Below, in pieces: positions 30,966-55,364 of a stretch of DNA of 64,000 bases. The stretch's first letter is position 1; every line of letters begins with the position of its first letter. The notes under the pieces are model-generated. The model was not told the DNA's origin. It saw only the letters and a list, made by a program, of their open reading frames with translations, and did not search any database. A program made the position numbers and the translations under genes. Origin of the DNA: Planctomycetota bacterium (lineage in GTDB: Bacteria; Planctomycetota; UBA1135); contig JALUVI010000009.1 of the NCBI GenBank assembly GCA_027020785.1, forward strand, positions 3,469 through 67,468. The letters are read 5' to 3'.

Positions 30966-31925
30966 GTGTGGCCTGAACTGTTCCGCCTTCCGGTGATCGA
31001 CGTGCCGCTGCGCAGCTTCGGGCTGTTGCTGGGGCTGGGCTTCCTGACGGCGGTGTGGATGGGGGCGCGCCTGGCCGCGCGCTACGGTTCCGACCCGAAG
31101 CGCGACCCGGAGCGTCTCTACGACGTCGCTTGGTGGGTGCTGATCGGGGTCGTGGCGGGCGCGCGGTTGGCCTTCGTGCTGATCAACCTGCCGCACTACC
31201 TGGAGCACCCCCTGGACGTCGTCAAGATCTGGGAGGGGGGTCTGGTGATGTACGGCGGCCTCATTCTAGCCCTGGTCCTCGGCGGCTGGAAGGTGAAGCG
31301 GCTCGGGATGCCGCTGTGGCGCACCGCCGACTACGGCCTGACCGCCGGCTTCCTCGGCCAGGCCATCGGTCGCCTCGGCTGTCTCGCGGTCGGCGACGAC
31401 TACGGCGCCCCCACCAGCGTCCCCTGGGCCATCACCTTCCCCGACCCCCTGCCGCGGGGCAGCGCCTTCCCACCCGAACTGGCCGGCGTCCCGGTCCACC
31501 CCACCCAGCTCTACCTGGCGCTCGCCGCCTTCGGCCTGTTCCTGCTCGGCCTGTGGTTGCTCCCGCGCAAGCGCTTCCACGGCCAGGTGGTGGCGGTGCT
31601 GCTCGTGGCCTACGCCGTGAGCCGCTTCGTCATCGAGGCCTTCCGCGGCGACGCTCTGGCCCGCCGCGGCCTGTTCCGCGCCGGAGCGACTCCGGAGGAC
31701 GCCATCGCCCGCCTCGCCGAACACGGGGTGCGGGTGGACCCCGCCGGCCGCATCATGGACCCGGACCGCTACCGCGAGCTGCTCCTCCAGGGCGTCGAGG
31801 GCATCCGCCCCGAGCTCCTGCTCTCGACCTCGCAGATGATCTCCATCGCCGTGGTCGTGTTCGGGCTGGGGCTCTACCTGGTCCTCGGCCGTCGTCCCGA
31901 GCTGCGGGTCACCCCCGACGCGTGA
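30966..31925 (+). CDS. lgt: Prolipoprotein diacylglyceryl transferase with a C-terminal extension
   Basis: It has a GTG start. Motifs are 'YGGLILALV', 'GQAIGRLGC' and 'VHPTQLY'. Confidence 0.9.
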   Translation: MWPELFRLPVIDVPLRSFGLLLGLGFLTAVWMGARLAARYGSDPKRDPERLYDVAWWVLIGVVAGARLAFVLINLPHYLEHPLDVVKIWEGGLVMYGGLILALVLGGWKVKRLGMPLWRTADYGLTAGFLGQAIGRLGCLAVGDDYGAPTSVPWAITFPDPLPRGSAFPPELAGVPVHPTQLYLALAAFGLFLLGLWLLPRKRFHGQVVAVLLVAYAVSRFVIEAFRGDALARRGLFRAGATPEDAIARLAEHGVRVDPAGRIMDPDRYRELLLQGVEGIRPELLLSTSQMISIAVVVFGLGLYLVLGRRPELRVTPDA

Positions 31926-31926
31926 G

Positions 31927-32892
31927 GTGGCCTTCCTCGCCGGGGTGGACGAAGCCGGGTACGGGCCTCCGCTCGGTCCCCTCGTCGTCGGCCACGCCCT
32001 GTTCCGGGTCCCCGACCCCGAGGTCCGGCTCGGCTCGGTGCTGCGCCGCGCCGCGGCCCCCGGCCCGCGCCGCAGCCAACGCGACCGACGGCTGTGGCTG
32101 GACGACAGCAAGAAGGTCCACCAGGGCCCGCACGGGCGGCGGCGCATGGCGCGCACCGTGGCCGCCTTCCGTCGGCTGATGGGCGCCGAGGACCCGGCGC
32201 TCGCGAGCTGGGTCGCCGAGCCGCCCTGCGGCGACGCCCGGCTCCTCCACGCCGCACCGTGGTTCCTGGAGCTGGACGGTCCGCTGTGCCCGGAGGCCTC
32301 GCCCGATCGAGCCCGCCTGGACGCGGCGCTCCTCGGCCGTCACCTCGACCGCGGCGGCTGCGGTTTCGCCGGCTTCGGCGCCCGCGTCGTCCCCGCGGTG
32401 GAATGGAACGGCCTGCTCGACGACCACGGCAACAAGGGCGCGGCCCACGCCGCGGTGGTCTTCCCCATCCTGGTCCACCTGGTCGAACGCGTCGCCGGGG
32501 CCCCCCTCCGCATCGAGGTGGACCGCCTCGGCGGGCGCATCCGCTACGGCGCGTTGTTGCGCCGCCACTTCCCCGACGCGCGGATCGAGGTGCACGACGA
32601 AGGCCCGGCGGCCTCGCTCTACACCCTGCACCTGCCCGAGCGCAGCCCGGTCCAGGTCCGCTTCTCGGAGGGCGCCGACGGCCGCCACGCCCAGACCGCT
32701 CTGGCCTCGCTGGCCGCCAAGCAGACCCGCGAGCGCCTGATGGACCTCTTCAACGACTGGTTCGCAGCGCACGACCCAGCCTTGGAACCGACCCGCGGCT
32801 ACGCCCAGGACGCCAACCGCTGGCTGGCCGACGCCGCCCCCCTCCTCGAGCGCCTCGCCCTCGACCGCCGCCTGCTGGTGCGCGAGCGCTAG
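31927..32892 (+). CDS. Divergent RNase HII-like domain protein (321 aa)
   Basis: It has a GTG start. 'GVDEAGYGPPLGPLVV' can be compared with RNase HII 'G.DEAGRGP..GP.V'. 'DDSKKV' and 'ADGRHAQTALASLAAKQTR' can be compared with '..D....VAAASI.AK..R'. A large insertion lies between these motifs. Confidence 0.5.
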   Translation: MAFLAGVDEAGYGPPLGPLVVGHALFRVPDPEVRLGSVLRRAAAPGPRRSQRDRRLWLDDSKKVHQGPHGRRRMARTVAAFRRLMGAEDPALASWVAEPPCGDARLLHAAPWFLELDGPLCPEASPDRARLDAALLGRHLDRGGCGFAGFGARVVPAVEWNGLLDDHGNKGAAHAAVVFPILVHLVERVAGAPLRIEVDRLGGRIRYGALLRRHFPDARIEVHDEGPAASLYTLHLPERSPVQVRFSEGADGRHAQTALASLAAKQTRERLMDLFNDWFAAHDPALEPTRGYAQDANRWLADAAPLLERLALDRRLLVRER

Positions 32893-32913
32893 GCGTCGGT
32901 GTCGCCCTCCTCC
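32853..32913. repeat. Direct repeat, copy 1 (47 bp perfect at 32853-32899; 61 bp with 2 mismatches)
   Basis: It is identical to 34446-34492 at an offset of 1593 bp. It spans the 3' end of the RNase HII-like CDS, a CTAG stop and a remnant resembling the Tex-like C terminus ('EEGDTDA*' against 'EKGDSDA*'). Confidence 0.9.
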
Positions 32914-32914
32914 T

Positions 32915-33823
32915 TCACTCGGAGCGCTCGTCCACACCACCGTCCACCGAACCGTACTCGTCGGCGAGGTCCTCGGCGGCGCGACGCAGCAGGTCCAGGT
33001 ATTCGTCTTCGAAGTCGCGGACCGCCTGACGATGGACGAGGAGGTCGGGGGCGACGGTCGCGAGGTCCACGTCGTCGTAGTCGGTGACGCCCACGCTGCG
33101 CAGCGCTCGGCGAGCGAACACGTCCAGGGTTTCGGCCATGGTGAGGCTCGGGGCCATGAGGAGGAGGAGGCGGGCCCGAGTCGTCCCCAGCTCTCGGAGC
33201 TCGGGCGTGTCCATCGGCACCCGGTCCAGGTCCACCTCCAGAGCCGCAAGGGCGGCCTCGGGGGGAAAGGTCAGAGCCTCCTCGGCCAATGCCTCCTCGG
33301 CGCGGCGCCGCAAGCCAGGAGTCCACCCCCCTTCCTCTTCGGCTCGCCCCCAGCGGAGACCGGCCGCCAATGCGTTGCCCAGGTAGAGCCGTTCCAAGGC
33401 GTCGAGAGGTGCGAAACTCTCCTCCGGCAAGAGGAGGACCGCGCGATCCGTGAACCGGTTGCTTTCCTCCATCTTCCTGCGGAGCCACTCGGGTCCGATG
33501 CCGTCCCGCACCTCCGCGGCGAGGGCAGCCCGTGACCAATCGTCGAGACTCCGGACGTAGAGGCGCCTGGCCTCCTCGAGCAACGCCTTGCGGTCCACCC
33601 CGGCGTCCTCCTCCGGTTCGCTCACGGCCCCCGCATCGCGACCGACCGAGGCCCGCGCAGGGGGATCCGACGGAGCCGTCATGCGGTTCCCGCCCTCGTC
33701 GTCCGGACGCCCGGCCACGACCGACGGCGCCTCCGCAGGCGTTCCTCCTGGCCGCAACAGCAGCAGACCGAGGACGAGGACCGACAGGACGACGAGGGCG
33801 GGCCGTGCCGCGAACCGACGCAT
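32915..33823 (-). CDS. Hypothetical membrane-anchored or secreted acidic protein (302 aa)
   Basis: The N-terminal hydrophobic segment is 'ALVVLSVLVLGLLLL'. The composition looks coding and the ORF fills the cassette. I recognise no family. Confidence 0.45.
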   Translation of the reverse strand: MRRFAARPALVVLSVLVLGLLLLRPGGTPAEAPSVVAGRPDDEGGNRMTAPSDPPARASVGRDAGAVSEPEEDAGVDRKALLEEARRLYVRSLDDWSRAALAAEVRDGIGPEWLRRKMEESNRFTDRAVLLLPEESFAPLDALERLYLGNALAAGLRWGRAEEEGGWTPGLRRRAEEALAEEALTFPPEAALAALEVDLDRVPMDTPELRELGTTRARLLLLMAPSLTMAETLDVFARRALRSVGVTDYDDVDLATVAPDLLVHRQAVRDFEDEYLDLLRRAAEDLADEYGSVDGGVDERSE

Positions 33824-33830
33824 CAGGGTT

Positions 33831-34328
33831 TCACTCCGCGTCGATGCACGGGGTACAGGCGAAGGTCGCCACCAGAGGGGGTGAGAGCTCCTGGCGTTCT
33901 TCGTCGAACAGGGTCGGAGTGAGGGTCAGCTCCTCCCCGCCACAGTCGGGAAGGATGGGGTCGTGACGGTATCGGATCACGACGTCGCCGTCTGCCGGGA
34001 TCGCGACCTCGTCGTCGTATCCCAGGAGGGCGAATCTCGGACGGCCTCGACCGTTCCAGTCCTCGTCGCACCCGACGAGTTCCGCTTCGACGTTCGTGAA
34101 CTTGCACCTGGGTGAACCGGAGTCACACTTTCCTGGCTCCTTCCTCTTGGTGACGATCCTGATCTGGTAGCACCCGGGCGCGGTCTTGCCATCCGCGAAG
34201 GCACCTCCACCCAGTGGCTGACAGGGTGTCCTGCCGGGAGGCTCCTGAGGGAACACGACGGGGCCGGCCATGAGCGGCAGGGCGAGGAGCATGCCGAAGA
34301 GGAGGGAGAGCCACTGGTGATGCTTCAT
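33831..34328 (-). CDS. Small secreted cysteine-rich protein (165 aa; 8 Cys)
   Basis: The signal peptide is 'WLSLLFGMLLALPLMAG'. Eight Cys residues are spread through the mature part. I recognise no family. Confidence 0.5.
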   Translation of the reverse strand: MKHHQWLSLLFGMLLALPLMAGPVVFPQEPPGRTPCQPLGGGAFADGKTAPGCYQIRIVTKRKEPGKCDSGSPRCKFTNVEAELVGCDEDWNGRGRPRFALLGYDDEVAIPADGDVVIRYRHDPILPDCGGEELTLTPTLFDEERQELSPPLVATFACTPCIDAE

Positions 34329-34445
34329 GGTCGCCTTCGAGAAACGGGAGGAGCACGCCCGAACGGGACGTCCGTACGCTGGAGGGTACCCCCCCCTCCC
34401 CCATGAGCAACCCTCGTCCAGGCGTCGCAGGAGAGTGGAAGCCCA

Positions 34446-34506
34446 CCTCGCCCTCGACCGCCGCCTGCTGGTGCGCGAGCGCTAGGCGTCGGAGTCGCCC
34501 TTCTCC
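34446..34506. repeat. Direct repeat, copy 2
   Basis: See copy 1. This copy includes the true 3' end of the Tex-like gene (stop at 34482-34484) and a non-functional copy of the last roughly 37 nt of the RNase HII-like CDS. Confidence 0.9.
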
Positions 34507-36968
34507 CCGGCGGACTCGCCGGAGTCGGCACCCTCCCGGAACAGCTCCACCTGCTGGAAGAACTGGACGAAGGGGTTGGTGGGGTCGATCTCCTCGTGCT
34601 TCTCGCGCGGATCCGGACCGTGGTCCTCGCGGCGGCCGCGACCGCCGCCGCGGCGCCCCCCACCGCGCCCCCCACCGCGCCCCCCACCACGGCCGCCCGC
34701 CGAGCGACCACCGGCGCGGGCGCCGGCGCGTTCCTTGCGCCGGGCCTCGCGGGCCGCCTCTTCCTCTTCGGTGAGCATGGAGAGCTTCAGCTTGCGCTCG
34801 GCGAGGTCCACCGCCAGGACGCGGACCGCGACCTCCTGGCCGGGTTGGACGACCTGGCGCGGATCCTCCACGAAGCCTTCGGCCGAGAGGTGGCTGACGT
34901 GGACCAGCCCCGGGCGGGAGGCGCCGACGTCCACGAAGACCCCGTAGTCGGTGATCCCCTGGACCACGCCCTGGAGCCGGTCGCCCTTCTGCAATGCCTC
35001 CAGCCGGACCTCGTGCGAGCGACGCCGCAGCGGAGCGCGGCGCCGACGCCGCAGCAAGGCTTCACGGACCCGCTCGCGCACCCCTTCCTCGCCCGCCTCG
35101 AGCACCTCGTCCCAGGGCAGCTGGTCCACCAGCTGCGGTTCGCGCAGCAACCGGGCGAGCGGCAGTTCGGCGCGCTCCAGGACCGCGCGCAGGGCGGGGC
35201 GGAACGCAGGATGGACGCCGCGGGCGTCCAACGGGTCCTCGCCGCCGGGGATCCGCAGCAGGCAGGCCGCCGCACGCCAATCGCGGGCGGAGGGCTGCAT
35301 CCGGTCGTGGAAGTCGGCCAGGGACAGGAACGGGGCGGTGGAGCGCTCGACCTCGACCGCTTCGGCGTCGATGCCGGGCACCAGCCGCAGGGCGTCGCGC
35401 TCGGCCCGGCTCGGGTCCACCCCCTTGCGCAGCAGGAGCTCGCGCAGGAAGTGGGTCTCGAACTCGTCGAGCAGCCTCGGGTTGATCTCGGAGCGGCCCG
35501 GCACGAAACCGCGCACCAGGTGCGGCGCATGGAAGGCGGCGAGGCGCGGCTCGTGTCCGAACCAGGCGACCAGGCTGGCGTAGCGCTCGTCGTGCGAGAG
35601 CAGGGCCTCGGCGGGACGGCGTGCGACCTCGCGGAGCAGGGTACGCCCGACGGAAGACGGCACCGAGGTGCCGCGTTGGACCGCGCCGTTCCGACGCAGC
35701 GCCTTCAGGAGCTTGGGGCCGGCGGCGCGGGCCGGCCCCTCGGCCGCCCAGGCGACGACCGCGGGCGCCTCCCCACCGAGGAAGGCCTCGGCCTGGGCGA
35801 CGAAGGAGTCCTTGCGCGGGTCCAGCTCGACGGTCCGCGGGGGGTGCTCGCGGTCCGTCAGGAGCGACAGGACGACCCGATGGCCGCGGCCGGGTGCGAC
35901 GCCGAGGGCCGGGCCCTGGGCCTTCCCGCGGTCGAGGACCTGCACCACCACCGGCCAGGCCTCTTCCAGCGCTCGGAGCTCGGCGCGACGCTTGAGGTCG
36001 GCGCGGAGCGCCTGGGTCGCCCGCGGCAGGTACTCGCGCTCGACGAACTCGTCGAACAGCTGGCGGTAGCGGTCGCGCTCCTGCGGCGGGACGCGGTCGC
36101 CGAGGCCGCGGAAGACCTCGTCGCGGGCCGCGGCCGGCAGGTCGAACCGCAGCCGGACCTGGCGGGCGCGCTCGGCCCGACGCAGACGGAGGTAGTCCTC
36201 CAGCGGCAGCGAGGCGAGATGGCGCGGCCCGGGCTCGGGGAGGGGCGGCCCCTTGCCTCGGCGGGCGGGGCGCGCGGCCTGCTTCGCCGCCGCCGCGACC
36301 TCCTGCTTGGCCTCCTGCTTGGCCTCCTGCTTGGCCTCCTGCTTGGCCTCCTGCTTGGCCTCCTGCTTGGCCTCCTGCTTGGCCTCGGTGTCGGCGTCGG
36401 CGTCGGCCGCGCCAGCCTCGGGGGACGAGGCGTCGGGCGCTGCATCGGCCCCTTCCGCAGCGGGCGCGGCCGGCGCCGGAGCCTCGGCCCCGGCCACGAT
36501 CTCGACCACGAGCTGCCCCTGATGTTGCAGGGCCTGGCGCAACGCTCCGGCGACCTCGGGGTCGCTGCGCAATGCGGCGACGAAGGCCGCCTGCTCCTCC
36601 TTCGCCGGCGCCTCCCAGCCCTCCGGGGCCGGCATCGGCCGCACCGCGAGCAAGAGGTCGTCGAGCTCGCCCTCGGTGTGCGCAGCCTCGGCGCGCGGCA
36701 CCAGGTCGCCCCGATCGTGCTCCCGGAGCGTCTGGACGACGTTGTGGCGACGACGCTCCAGGTTCTGCAAGCGACGCAGCCGCTCCAGAAGGAGTTCGAA
36801 GCCGAAGGCGTCGGGGAACAACCCGGCCAGGGCGGGATCGCCGCAGCGCAGCCACAACGGATGCTCCCCCGCCTCCAGGGCCTGGAGGAGGTGGCGCACC
36901 ACCTCGGGTTTCAACCCGAGCTCGCGGGCGACGCGAGCGGCGGCTTCCGGCTGGACCTGACCCGGCAT
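34482..36968 (-). CDS. Tex-like S1-domain RNA-binding protein with an (EAKQ)7 insert and a C-terminal RGG tail
   Basis: The S1 domain is 'LQKGDRLQGVVQGITDYGVFVDVGASRPGLVHVSHLS...VRVLAVDLAERKLKLSM'. The preceding 'LLRIPGGEDPLDARGVHP' resembles the Tex HhH region. The tail is '[23 protein letters not shown]'. Confidence 0.65.
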   Translation of the reverse strand: MPGQVQPEAAARVARELGLKPEVVRHLLQALEAGEHPLWLRCGDPALAGLFPDAFGFELLLERLRRLQNLERRRHNVVQTLREHDRGDLVPRAEAAHTEGELDDLLLAVRPMPAPEGWEAPAKEEQAAFVAALRSDPEVAGALRQALQHQGQLVVEIVAGAEAPAPAAPAAEGADAAPDASSPEAGAADADADTEAKQEAKQEAKQEAKQEAKQEAKQEAKQEVAAAAKQAARPARRGKGPPLPEPGPRHLASLPLEDYLRLRRAERARQVRLRFDLPAAARDEVFRGLGDRVPPQERDRYRQLFDEFVEREYLPRATQALRADLKRRAELRALEEAWPVVVQVLDRGKAQGPALGVAPGRGHRVVLSLLTDREHPPRTVELDPRKDSFVAQAEAFLGGEAPAVVAWAAEGPARAAGPKLLKALRRNGAVQRGTSVPSSVGRTLLREVARRPAEALLSHDERYASLVAWFGHEPRLAAFHAPHLVRGFVPGRSEINPRLLDEFETHFLRELLLRKGVDPSRAERDALRLVPGIDAEAVEVERSTAPFLSLADFHDRMQPSARDWRAAACLLRIPGGEDPLDARGVHPAFRPALRAVLERAELPLARLLREPQLVDQLPWDEVLEAGEEGVRERVREALLRRRRRAPLRRRSHEVRLEALQKGDRLQGVVQGITDYGVFVDVGASRPGLVHVSHLSAEGFVEDPRQVVQPGQEVAVRVLAVDLAERKLKLSMLTEEEEAAREARRKERAGARAGGRSAGGRGGGRGGGRGGGRRGGGRGRREDHGPDPREKHEEIDPTNPFVQFFQQVELFREGADSGESAGEKGDSDA
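36301..36384. repeat. Perfect 12-nt tandem repeat x7 (tcctgcttggcc) encoding (EAKQ)n on the minus strand
   Basis: I counted it directly in the sequence. A GTCGGC-type hexamer run encoding 'DADAD' follows it. Confidence 0.95.
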
Positions 36969-54027: not shown

Positions 54028-54441
54028 TCAGCGCTTGCGGCGCGTGGTCTTCCGCTTGGCGGGCTTCCGCTTCGCGGCCTTCTTCTTGGCGGGCTTGCGC
54101 TTGGTGGCCTTCTTCTTGGTCGCCTTGCGCTTGGTCGCCTTCTTCTTGGTGGCCTTGCGCTTGGTCGCCTTCTTCTTGGTCGCCTTGCGCTTGGTGGCCT
54201 TCTTCTTGGTGGCCTTGCGCTTGGTGGCCTTCTTCTTGGTGGCCTTGCGCTTGGTCGCCTTCTTCTTGGTCGCCTTCTTCTTGGTCGCCTTGCGCTTGGT
54301 CGCCTTCTTCTTGGTCACCTTGCGCTTGGTCGCCTTCTTCTTGGTCGCCTTGCGCTTGGCGGGCTTCCGCTTCGCGGTCTTGCGCTTGGCGGGCTTCCGC
54401 TTCGCGGTCTTCCGTTTGGTAGCTTTCTTGCGAACAGCCAT
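54028..54441 (-). CDS. Histone H1-like lysine-rich repeat protein (137 aa; K/R/A/T only)
   Basis: The start is the ATG at 54441 ('MAVRKKATKRK'). The body consists of (ATKRKATKKK)n repeats. A perfect repeat periodicity is kept in frame. It has its own upstream region after the rpmB terminator. Confidence 0.7.
   Translation of the reverse strand: MAVRKKATKRKTAKRKPAKRKTAKRKPAKRKATKKKATKRKVTKKKATKRKATKKKATKKKATKRKATKKKATKRKATKKKATKRKATKKKATKRKATKKKATKRKATKKKATKRKPAKKKAAKRKPAKRKTTRRKR
54091..54360. repeat. Approximately 30-nt (15+15) tandem repeat array inside the H1-like gene
   Basis: Units of the form 'ggccttgcgcttggtSgccttcttcttggt' repeat head to tail, with a 15-nt phase shift near 54271. 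Confidence 0.9.
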
Positions 54442-54589
54442 GTCTTCCTTTTCTGGATCCAGTGGAAATCGGCGCAGCCGTCGCTGGGACGACCGGCCGG
54501 GGGGAGACGAACCCGCGATGCCGTGGTCGCGACCACGACATCTGGGTCCTTCCCCCCTGCCATCGGCGGACGGACCGTGGAATTCACCG

Positions 54590-54635
54590 GGAAAACCGAA
54601 AAAATGCACCGACCCCGACTCGGAGTCGGGGTCGG
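54590..54635 (-). terminator. Rho-independent terminator downstream of rpmB
   Basis: On the minus strand the stem is CCGACCCCGACTC/GAGTCGGGGTCGG (54609-54635). GGTGCATTTTTTCGGTTTTCC follows it. Confidence 0.6.
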
Positions 54636-54672
54636 TCGGGGAGGTCGGCGCCCGAGCGCCGAAGGGCGCGGG

Positions 54673-54987
54673 TCAGCCCTGGTCGCGGCTGCGCAACCAG
54701 GCGCGATTGCGCCCGCGCACCGCCTTCACGAGCGGCACGGTCACGGTGCGACCGCCCATCTCCAGCTCGAGCTTCCCGGACTTGATGACCGAGGTCGCGA
54801 GCTTCATCCGCTTGACGGTCCCATCCGGCAGCAGGACCCGGACCTTCTGCACGTTCGCCTTGAAGGTCCGCTTGGTGTGGCCGGTGGTCTTGAGGCCCAC
54901 GCCTCCCTTCTTCTTGGGGAGACCGCGACGGGCGATGCTTCCGCCCGCACGGGTGCCTTTTCCGGTGATTTCGCAGCGTCTGGCCAT
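54673..54987 (-). CDS. rpmB: 50S ribosomal protein L28 (long form)
   Basis: The start is the ATG at 54987. 'MARRCEITGKG' and 'TKRTFKANVQKVRV...DGTVKRMKLATSVIKSGK' match the bL28 pattern. Confidence 0.8.
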   Translation of the reverse strand: MARRCEITGKGTRAGGSIARRGLPKKKGGVGLKTTGHTKRTFKANVQKVRVLLPDGTVKRMKLATSVIKSGKLELEMGGRTVTVPLVKAVRGRNRAWLRSRDQG

Positions 54988-55364
54988 GGGGGTACCTCCT
55001 CGGTGAGAGGGGCCGCACAGTCTAGGGAGGGGCCGGGCGCCCGTCAATCGGGCCTCGCCCGGAAACTGGCCATCCAGGGTGTGCCGACCCGTGGCGCAGG
55101 GGCGACGCACGCCGAGATCGCGTCCCCAGGGCAGACCTCCCCCGGTGCGGGGCCTTCCTGGCCTCGCTCGGTGCCACACGGTGCGCCCCGAGGCCCCGCT
55201 CCGGCCCCGGACCCACCGATCCTGCGCTGCGACACCCCTGGAGACGCGCCAGGACCGCCCAGGTCGCACGTTTCCTCCGCCAGCACACCCTGGATGGCCA
55301 GTTTCCGACCGAGGTTGACCGGAACGCCGGCCGGAGGGACAATCGGCGCCCACTCCGGAGGAAG

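Follow-up and report, generated by a model that had tools for sequence, protein, structure and literature searches.

A 62-bp duplication of a convergent gene junction flanks a putative two-gene insertion in an uncultured Planctomycetota lineage

Described insertions with long direct repeats

The entry of small accessory-gene islets into bacterial chromosomes without mobile-element machinery is poorly understood, and in most of these insertions age has erased the traces of how they arose. Among the described systems, the insertion with long target duplication leaves duplications that range from 45–47 bp to about 420 bp around units that carry no mobility genes (Nobusato 2000, Gene 259:99; Furuta, Abe & Kobayashi 2010, PMC2853133). 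In many of these insertions a stop or start codon falls within the repeat, which keeps the target gene whole, and all published cases carry restriction-modification genes, to whose DNA-breaking activity the authors linked the process (PMC2853133). CIMEs are integrase-less segments bounded by direct repeats of tens of base pairs that include a target gene 3' end; their marks are ICE or IME backbone remnants, tandem accretion with an integrase-bearing element, and excision demonstrated in the presence of that element (PMC5704250). Long and variable target duplications (8–514 bp), with a mechanism that is also unexplained, are made by IS1549 and IS1634 (PMC2266710), which are autonomous insertion sequences that encode a DDE transposase, have defined ends and occur in multiple copies. 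Finally, tycheposons gather different cargo in each lineage at a conserved site and leave direct repeats of about 40 nt from integration, these repeats being pieces of tRNA genes that arise through a tyrosine recombinase encoded by the element (bioRxiv 10.1101/2020.12.28.424599).

The locus described here lies in a 64-kb stretch of DNA (hereafter the window) from an uncultured Planctomycetota lineage, a host that sets it apart from the published long-target-duplication cases. In structure it resembles them closely. The inserted unit is small (1,531 bp, where the class allows up to 20 kb), a unique target longer than 30 bp is directly duplicated (62 bp, 47 of them still perfect), no integrase, transposase or phage gene lies in or beside the insert, the repeat spans gene stops and leaves the target intact, and the base composition of the insert is atypical. 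The published screen also asks that the repeat not be of high copy number in the genome, and the 47-mer at 32853–32899 has only 2 copies in the 64-kb window even when 3 mismatches are allowed. As for an empty site, the two target genes abut in 16 loci at 46–60% protein identity, and the close genomes (94–100% identical) are all occupied. The cargo is different, since it encodes one secreted protein rich in Cys and one helical protein with an anchor, in place of restriction-modification genes; this requirement is a property of the published screen, not of the structure. The target differs as well, being an overlapping convergent junction at which two genes were rescued at once. Judged by its sequence, the insertion matches the long-target-duplication type, a known but rarely documented scar whose mechanism is unexplained.

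The other systems fit less well. Like a CIME, the locus is an integrase-less segment between direct repeats of suitable length, here with two gene 3' ends in the 62-bp repeat; unlike a CIME, it shows no backbone, accretion or excision, and the insert is a single operon. Neither the insert, the searched parts of the window nor the cargo of eight further insertions at this junction yielded a recombinase or a remnant of one. With regard to an empty site or circle, each close assembly is occupied, and Logan k=31 contigs break inside the repeat, where the occupied and empty or excised forms are indistinguishable. The insert has none of the attributes of IS1549 and IS1634: terminal inverted repeats, a transposase and multiple copies were all sought, as for any DNA transposon or MITE, and none was found. 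In contrast to the tycheposons, the site is a protein-gene junction, there is no recombinase, and the repeat is kept in only one of the lineages.

The duplicated junction and its ancestral state

A repeat search of the window returned exactly the coordinates given in an earlier sequence-only reading of this DNA, namely a 61-nt direct repeat with 2 mismatches (97% identity, 32853–32913 and 34446–34506) at a spacing of 1593 bp, within which a 47-nt core is perfect (32853–32899 and 34446–34492). The 47-mer found no match in 100 dinucleotide-preserving shuffles, and the repeat is the sole long dispersed exact repeat of the window, all remaining repeated 20-mers lying in tandem arrays. Comparison with a relative about 94% identical puts the original duplication at 62 bp (Table 1); relative to it, copy 1 in the window has since mutated at 32900 and 32909, and copy 2 at 34507. 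Copy 1 of contigs L005 and L171 agrees with copy 2 across all 62 nt. These comparisons indicate that the duplication was perfect or nearly so at formation, and that the differences are later changes in its relic part.

Table 1. Features of the RNase HII-like/Tex-like locus, with positions in the window.
Feature	Position	Strand	Remarks
RNase HII-like gene, 321 aa, left target	31927..32892	+	Pfam RNase_HII E=7.7e-10; 3' end from copy 1
Repeat copy 1	32853..32914	.	40 nt of RNase HII 3' end including stop, plus 22-nt Tex 3' relic
CTAG, copy 1	32889..32892	.	TAG stop of RNase HII-like gene (+); disused stop of Tex relic (-)
Tex C-terminus relic, non-coding	32893..32914	-	KEEGDTDA-stop, against the true GEKGDSDA-stop
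Inserted DNA, 1,531 bp	32915..34445	-	one two-gene operon, 117-nt leader, no 3' UTR
g302, 302 aa	32915..33823	-	acidic, pI 4.6, predicted all-helical, N-terminal hydrophobic anchor or signal
g165, 165 aa	33831..34328	-	secreted-type, 8 conserved cysteines, g302's partner in gene pair
Operon leader, non-coding, 117 nt	34329..34445	-	upstream of g165; 6% diverged between lineages
Repeat copy 2	34446..34507	.	36-nt RNase HII relic, CTAG at 34482-34485, functional last Tex codons
Tex-like S1-domain gene, 828 aa, right target	34482..36968	-	Pfam S1; 3' end from copy 2

In each copy the RNase HII-like and Tex-like genes meet end to end in a fused junction. The duplicated target comprises the last 40 nt of the former and the last 25 nt of the latter, which overlap by 3 nt inside a shared CTAG that is a stop on both strands. 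Copy 1 completes the RNase HII-like gene (its final 37 nt plus the stop, with the protein tail ALDRRLLVRER) and copy 2 completes the Tex-like gene; because there is a full junction on each side, neither conserved gene is damaged. The unused half of each copy is a non-coding relic. Reading the tails on both strands bore out the earlier description of the repeat, including the remnant EEGDTDA of the Tex C-terminus in copy 1.

The RNase HII-like family is conserved across Planctomycetota. Its member here gives weak matches to PDB RNase HII structures, mostly over the N-terminal motif, and the Tex-like protein gives a co-linear match to residues 545–756 of P. aeruginosa Tex (3bzc). The two genes abut directly in 16 related loci (gap –4 to +36 nt), four of which have the same 4-bp stop overlap (L022, L090, L099 and L100); these are distant relatives, in which the 62-mer is not alignable at the nucleotide level. 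Since both repeat copies hold the fused junction, direct adjacency must predate the insertion. Together, these sequence relationships support an ancestor in which the RNase HII-like (+) and Tex-like (-) genes converged with a 4-bp overlap on a shared CTAG stop, which is the ancestral state that the sequence-only reading had proposed. The junction is occupied by differing gene sets in at least 8 relatives. No recombinase was found in the cargo of eight other insertions there, and none of these eight has junction repeats above the shuffled null.

The inserted operon and its age

Only two minus-strand genes lie between the repeat copies, as had been noted from the sequence, and they encode the 165-aa Cys-rich secreted-type protein and the 302-aa acidic anchored protein. 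The operon stands directly downstream of Tex on the same strand. Its non-coding DNA totals 124 nt (117 nt plus 7 nt), and the left repeat copy abuts the g302 stop codon with 0 nt of 3' UTR between them. The GC3 of the insert genes is 0.83 and 0.80, against 0.91–0.96 in neighbouring genes. The g302 family is rare, with 4 clusters among 1.84 billion representatives, and the g302-g165 pair was found again at about 30–36% identity in two contexts (L173/L174 and L175), adjoining unrelated genes; neither of these two loci has flanking repeats. Because its GC3 is atypical and the gene pair recurs in unrelated contexts, the evidence supports the view that what lies between the repeats is inserted DNA of foreign origin. 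Both of its open reading frames are intact, with 0 indels across 2,164 bp that differ by 5.7%, and in comparison with the relative about 94% identical the dN/dS is 0.41 for g302 and 0.61 for g165; this pattern of substitution marks both as real genes.

The g165 protein has a signal-peptide-like N-terminus and 8 Cys. Searches with the two insert proteins gave no matches in Pfam or PADLOC and non-significant ones only (E >= 0.14) in NCBIfam and PHROGs, and a profile search against the PDB gave no match. Models made by AlphaFold2 from the single sequences had a pLDDT of 43 and 42.5 and were of no use. Defence and restriction-modification models did not match the cargo, whose N-termini are of secretion type; nothing nuclease-like is apparent in either protein. 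No sigma-70 consensus was matched in the leader, a consensus that is not informative for this phylum, and a promoter and terminator consensus scan of the locus gave nothing relevant.

The same repeat-plus-insert structure is present in an independent k=141 assembly (L001), and the same arrangement occurs in a lineage about 94–95% identical, in an NCBI MAG and ENA scaffolds (L004, L170 and L169). Logan contigs end exactly 30 nt inside the repeat (L003, L005 and L171), as expected with k=31. In all, at least 7 contigs, which represent two lineages and stem from different samples and assemblers, show the structure, and this disposes of the assembly artefact that the sequence-only reading had named as a possible refutation. 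We found no cassette-less or excised allele in the close genomes (94–100% identical); L169, L170 and L171 are occupied or end inside the repeat. The dS of the cassette between the lineages (0.09–0.125) is similar to that of the flanks (0.07–0.15). Since the arrangement is common to the lineage about 94–95% identical, the insertion predates that split, and these comparisons suggest that it is old and probably fixed. It had also been suggested beforehand that one arrangement in all relatives, with diverged repeats, would indicate an ancient fixed duplication and not an insertion. That expectation is half borne out: in every close relative that we found the arrangement is indeed the same, which points to an old and probably fixed event. 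It is an insertion nonetheless, with repeats that differ little.

How the insertion may have arisen

The explanation we favor, with a probability of about 0.6, is that the locus preserves a single old insertion scar, probably fixed, and not a currently mobile cassette, in which the 62-bp target duplication kept both genes intact. A 1,531-bp foreign piece carrying one operon would have been joined at the convergent RNase HII/Tex junction, and the same event would have duplicated 62 bp of target. Duplication and insertion are assigned to one event because an insert into a pre-existing tandem must hit the exact copy boundary. The junction would have been opened with both ends keeping the 62-bp segment, perhaps through nicks in a stagger of about 62 nt and subsequent fill-in, or perhaps because a template switch during replication copied the segment a second time, and the linear foreign fragment could then have been joined by host repair, without an element-encoded recombinase. 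Selection would explain why such a product survived, because where convergent genes overlap at their junction, an insertion spares both of them only if it restores both 3' ends.

Some features of the locus sit less easily with an insertion scar. The left edge of the insert is exactly the g302 stop codon, an unlikely end for a random fragment; a 62-bp repeat of gene 3' ends resembles a tyrosine-recombinase att site; and in the published long-target-duplication cases, all of them restriction-modification systems, the authors suspected the DNA-cleaving activity of the cargo, of which there is no sign here. A further such feature is the unchanged RNase HII relic of copy 2, described below.

Site-specific integration of the att type, one of the two options named by the sequence-only reading, would make the 62-bp repeat the identity segment of attL and attR and the cargo an integrase-less one, either decayed (CIME-like) or mobilised in trans by a tyrosine recombinase from another part of the genome; attP would have carried both gene ends, and integration would have restored both genes. 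The length of the repeat is at the upper edge of the 8–60 bp reported for tyrosine-recombinase att repeats, and elements that keep attL and attR after integrase loss are known (PMC5704250). Many att sites, like this repeat, are made of gene 3' ends. The presence of the module in differing genomic contexts, the different gene sets at the junction in at least 8 relatives, and a compact insert that terminates exactly at a stop codon would also fit. Nevertheless, no recombinase or transposase was found in the insert or in the window, where gene calls and Pfam covered about 1.5–43 kb and Pfam was run on ten open reading frames of the right third, and where the family-matched neighbours are housekeeping genes; this agrees with the earlier note that the insert has no integrase or transposase. 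The other insertions at the junction likewise lack a recombinase and repeats above the shuffled null, the two other module loci lack flanking repeats, and the 117 nt and 7 nt of non-coding insert DNA hold no backbone remnant. All close genomes sampled are occupied, with no empty or excised form among them, and viral contigs contain no 30-mer of the junction and no g302 relative. Integration of this type is without positive support here, and we consider it unlikely. Nor does the locus have the features of an integron gene cassette, since no attC-like structure was found in the repeat and no integrase in the searched window.

A two-step history, in which slippage first made a 62-bp tandem duplication of the junction that separated the overlapping genes, and foreign DNA later entered between the copies, would give a compatible final structure. 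Small tandem duplications are common, and this one would be neutral because both genes stay intact. Such an insert must nevertheless land exactly on the copy boundary when about 59 positions would be tolerated (from the RNase HII stop of copy 1 to the Tex stop of copy 2), a landing anywhere else would have left one side with an incomplete repeat, of which there is no sign, and a tandemly duplicated junction occurs in no relative. We think this sequence of events very improbable. The suggestion from the sequence alone that a junction duplication was followed by capture of foreign DNA comes close to the single-event insertion favored above, in which the two happened together.

Transposition in trans by a transposase of the IS1549 or IS1634 type, with the cassette as a non-autonomous passenger, would account for a long direct repeat, these elements giving repeats of 8–514 bp (PMC2266710). 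The insert has no terminal inverted repeats (alignment score 11 against a null mean of 12.6), no transposase was found in the searched parts of the window, and no further copy of the insert, or of either end, is present in the window or the databases, so that we regard this route as barely credible. A decayed large tandem duplication of the RNase HII and Tex 3' regions (1,593-bp period, interior diverged) or a chimeric assembly join has nothing to recommend it beyond the presence of a direct repeat and both were rejected, as g302 has no similarity to Tex (E=2.4), identity falls sharply from 100% to background at both repeat edges, g165 and g302 have homologues of their own elsewhere, and the structure recurs in the independent assemblies, samples and two lineages described above, one of them assembled with a k (141) that exceeds the repeat length.

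At this locus the scar is still legible, in a 62-bp repeat that cleanly duplicates an overlapping convergent junction. The insertion extends the long-target-duplication class to cargo other than restriction-modification and to a phylum previously unreported for it, and because the cargo is not restriction-modification, it makes a break by a nuclease of the cargo itself less likely. The locus also offers a signature for searches across genomes: a short insert without recombinases, bounded by a direct repeat of 30 bp or more in which a gene-end junction is duplicated. By itself its importance is modest, as a single fixed event with cargo to which no function is assigned. A broader and quite doubtful proposition is that the 62-bp duplication is the footprint of an uncharacterised general gene-capture route, either recombinase-independent (a staggered break at convergent transcription) or served by an unlinked enzyme in trans. 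Such a route would place promoter-plus-operon units precisely at convergent gene ends and regenerate both, would account for long-target-duplication insertions with non-restriction-modification cargo, and would explain the different genes acquired at the RNase HII/Tex junction by many Planctomycetota lineages.

Finally, the relic halves of the two repeat copies were compared between strains and lineages. Position 32900 in the Tex relic of copy 1 is T, C or A depending on the strain, and 32909 is altered in the window lineage; by this comparison of sequences, the relic is decaying. The repeat forms no secondary structure beyond that of shuffled controls on either strand (z –0.5 to +1.0). Copy 2 shows 0 differences in 61 positions between the two lineages, and its 36-nt RNase HII relic is unchanged where about 2–4 changes are expected under neutrality (P ~0.01–0.1), which may be a hint of constraint or of gene conversion.

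The repeat, its insert and the genes at its edges

A repeat search of the window returned a two-copy family (61 nt, 97% identity, 1,593 bp spacing), so the perfect 47-bp direct repeat and longer imperfect match described in the sequence-only reading are real. The 47-mer occurs at only two sites in the 64 kb with up to three mismatches allowed, was matched in 0 of 100 shuffles and is the window's sole long dispersed exact repeat; the proposed search for further copies is thus answered for the window. No secondary structure was found in the repeat. It contains the final 37 nt and stop of the RNase HII-like CDS, that stop being part of a CTAG that ends genes on both strands, followed by the final codons of the 828-aa S1-domain gene on the minus strand. 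This anatomy, and the Tex remnant first noticed in copy 1 (the left copy), are borne out by the sequence and the ORF list: copy 1 finishes the RNase HII-like gene and carries a Tex-tail relic (a non-coding leftover gene end), KEEGDTDA*, and copy 2 finishes Tex (GEKGDSDA*) and carries an RNase HII-tail relic, ALDRRLLVRER*. As originally described, only two minus-strand genes lie between the copies, an acidic anchored-type gene (g302), whose stop codon directly abuts the repeat, and a Cys-rich secreted-type gene (g165).

Features of the locus and of related gene pairs; positions are those of the window unless a contig is named
Feature	Position	Strand	Description
RNase HII-like gene, 321 aa	31927-32892	+	Pfam RNase_HII E=7.7e-10; weak RNase HII matches in PDB
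Copy 1, repeat search	32853-32913		
Copy 2, repeat search	34446-34506		
Insert between copies			1,531 bp: g302, 7-nt spacer, g165, 117-nt leader
g302, 302 aa	32915-33823	-	acidic, pI 4.6; hydrophobic N-terminal segment; predicted all-helical body
g165, 165 aa	33831-34328	-	signal-peptide-like N-terminus; eight cysteines
Tex-like S1-domain gene, 828 aa	34482-36968	-	Pfam S1; P. aeruginosa Tex (3bzc) alignment
Tex-like C-terminal tail repeat	34640-34700		12-nt offset; RGG/GGR-rich; just past S1 domain
CCTGCTTGGCCT array in Tex-like gene	36266-36398	+	12-nt tandem repeat; EAKQ repeats on - strand
Array in 323-aa ORF	54035-55006		30-nt period
g165-like + g302-like pair	L173 3316-4652		
g165-like + g302-like pair	L174 3244-4580		
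g165-like + g302-like pair	L175 1-980		

Both labels, RNase HII-like and Tex-like, hold up on database alignment; the Tex-like protein matches S1 alone in Pfam and aligns co-linearly to residues 545-756 of P. aeruginosa Tex (3bzc), past the S1 domain. Across window region 30966-32892 and loci L006-L168, the RNase HII-like protein forms a distinct, conserved, Planctomycetota-wide family of ~315–325 aa, and its gene sits just after lgt in loci with listed gene calls. It resembles canonical RNase HII only at the DEAGxG motif near its N-terminus and over one short C-terminal segment, and its activity is therefore uncertain. The CCTGCTTGGCCT array differs in copy number between assemblies that are otherwise 99.98% identical, being 48 bp (four units) longer in the window than in L001, an ENA assembly, which gives Tex-like proteins of 828 and 812 aa, respectively. 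The Tex-like tail has a second short-period repeat; RGG/GGR-rich tails of this kind characterize RNA-binding proteins, and canonical Tex does not have one.

Independent assemblies, ancestral state and age

The same structure is present in L001, which was assembled at k=141 (longer than the repeat) and is 99.98% identical to the window, in ENA scaffolds L170 and L169 (94.7–95.4% identical) and in L004 (NCBI MAG GCA_027000705.1; 94.3% identity in an ungapped 2,164-bp alignment), which has its own 62-nt repeat with 1 mismatch. Logan contigs assembled at k=31 (L003, L005 and L171) stop exactly 30 nt within the repeat, as expected of a de Bruijn graph. Recurrence in independent assemblies rules out the assembly artefact that had been raised as an alternative. 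The host is an uncultured Planctomycetota lineage. In L169, the RNase HII-like gene is short by ~100 bp (455-465 versus window 32482-32584) and a 100-aa fragment is called as a result; this is probably a scaffolding gap or local misassembly, not biology.

We fetched 160 loci encoding RNase HII-like relatives and measured stop-to-stop distances. Both genes are present in 33 same-clade loci (46–60% protein identity) and abut in 16 of these (gap -4 to +36 nt); four abutting loci have a 4-bp overlap of the gene ends, and one, L022, has CTAG itself. Since the fused junction is present in each repeat copy, the RNase HII-like and Tex-like genes must have been directly adjacent before the insertion; the proposed ancestral convergence on a shared stop is backed by these outgroups. 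The call for an empty site is answered in part: outgroups with abutting genes exist, and every close genome sampled is occupied, with no empty or alternative allele found among them.

Window and L004 diverge by 6.0–6.7% in the cassette (the g302-g165 DNA), 4.0% in the RNase HII 3' part and 5.4% in the Tex 3' part, with dS of 0.09–0.125 in the cassette and 0.07–0.15 in the flanks; this similarity indicates that the cassette was present in their common ancestor, with no recent exchange. The g302 and g165 ORFs are intact in both lineages (dN/dS 0.41 and 0.61), and judged by their sequences they are real genes. All four 47-mers are identical, and the repeats differ between lineages at 32900, 32909 and 34507. 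The simplest reading of these sequences is that a perfect 62-bp duplication (32853-32914, 34446-34507) arose shortly before the split and that later mutations fell in the relic. At position 32900 in copy 1, the window has T, L004, L169 and L170 have C, and L005 and L171 have A; the matching copy 2 base is A in every covering assembly, and the C- and A-bearing strains are otherwise 99.85–99.9% identical. To arrive at three states, either this site mutated twice independently or copy 2 converted copy 1. The 36-nt copy 2 RNase HII relic has 0 changes between lineages versus 2–4 expected (P ~0.01–0.1); its stasis and the three states at 32900 may be due to chance, gene conversion or some constraint.

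Eight lineages carry 1.0–7.6 kb between the two genes, and thus this junction has gained DNA repeatedly. Their cargo is ordinary, namely ABC transporters with Fur, a chorismate mutase/prephenate dehydratase/DAHP synthase fusion, very large CarboxypepD_reg proteins, a sulfotransferase and a glycosyltransferase; these eight showed no junction duplication above a shuffled null and no recombinase among their genes. The junction is a recurrent gene-gain site in the clade (L007, L008, L009, L012, L013, L026, L027, L095, L101), with at least five distinct gene sets of 1.0–7.6 kb, none of which has flanking repeats or a recombinase. The gene converging on RNase HII in L006 encodes an MscS channel, not Tex.

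Origin and proposed mechanism of the insertion

GC3 is 0.83 and 0.80 in the insert genes versus 0.91–0.96 in seven neighbouring genes. The insert proteins had no matches in Pfam or PADLOC and only non-significant ones in NCBIfam and PHROGs; word-indexed protein searches returned nothing beyond the query and a variant 89% identical to it. A full HMMER scan found three remote g302 homologues (31–39% identity). On contigs L173 and L174 one of them directly follows a 155-aa homologue of g165 that retains all eight Cys (30% identity, E=9e-16), and on L175 another is preceded by a g165-like C-terminus. Module neighbours differ among all three loci, and no flanking repeats were found at the two loci outside the window. 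Homologous pairs in differing contexts indicate that the insert is a conserved, rare two-gene module found at different places in different genomes; this recurrence and the atypical GC3 back the earlier suggestion of foreign DNA. The module is very rare: 1.84 billion representatives, clustered at 50% identity, include four clusters of it. All three recovered contexts are metagenome assemblies, L173 coming from L001's sample, and GC3 of the L173 pair is below that of the neighbouring gene.

The earlier reconstruction of ancestral junction and insertion is supported. Sequence comparison shows a single insertion where two convergent genes overlap, accompanied by a 62-bp target duplication that left both target genes complete. 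Its structure is exactly that of the "insertion with long target duplication" class (PMC2853133), units <20 kb with target duplications >30 bp (45–47 bp up to ~420 bp) and without mobility genes. In that class a start or stop codon frequently lies within the repeat, which preserves the target gene, and the authors suspected double-strand breakage by restriction-modification cargo. Within the class, the cargo and target here are unusual, two genes being rescued at once, and the phylum is new. The importance is modest, and would rise with read-level excision or a recurrent signature in a systematic screen.

As first reported for the insert, no recombinase or transposase was found there or in the window search (gene calls with Pfam over ~1.5–43 kb and a Pfam scan of ten right-third ORFs). 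The insert has no detected terminal inverted repeats, and no junction or module copies were found on viral contigs. We favour a recombinase-free event, in which the junction would have broken with both ends keeping 62 bp (by staggered nicks and fill-in, or template switch), the ends would have been joined to a linear foreign fragment, and selection would keep only the product regenerating both gene ends. The insert edge is exactly the g302 stop codon, which random fragment capture does not explain.

The main rival is the att-type integration first suggested, with a tyrosine recombinase that has been lost or acts in trans. The repeat fits in its length (8–60 bp for att repeats) and in its gene-end content, and CIMEs are integrase-less yet retain their att sites (PMC5704250). 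Tests for a recombinase, backbone remnant, site reuse and presence/absence polymorphism gave no positive outcome. Insertion into a pre-existing tandem duplication would require one exact position out of ~59. An IS1634-like transposase acting in trans could make target duplications of 8–514 bp (PMC2266710), but the required element ends are absent from the insert.

Elsewhere in the window, a dense tandem array (repeated 20-mers at offsets 30, 60, 90, 165 and 300) lies within a 323-aa ORF that matches nothing in Pfam and whose GC content by codon position is unusual (GC1 0.56).
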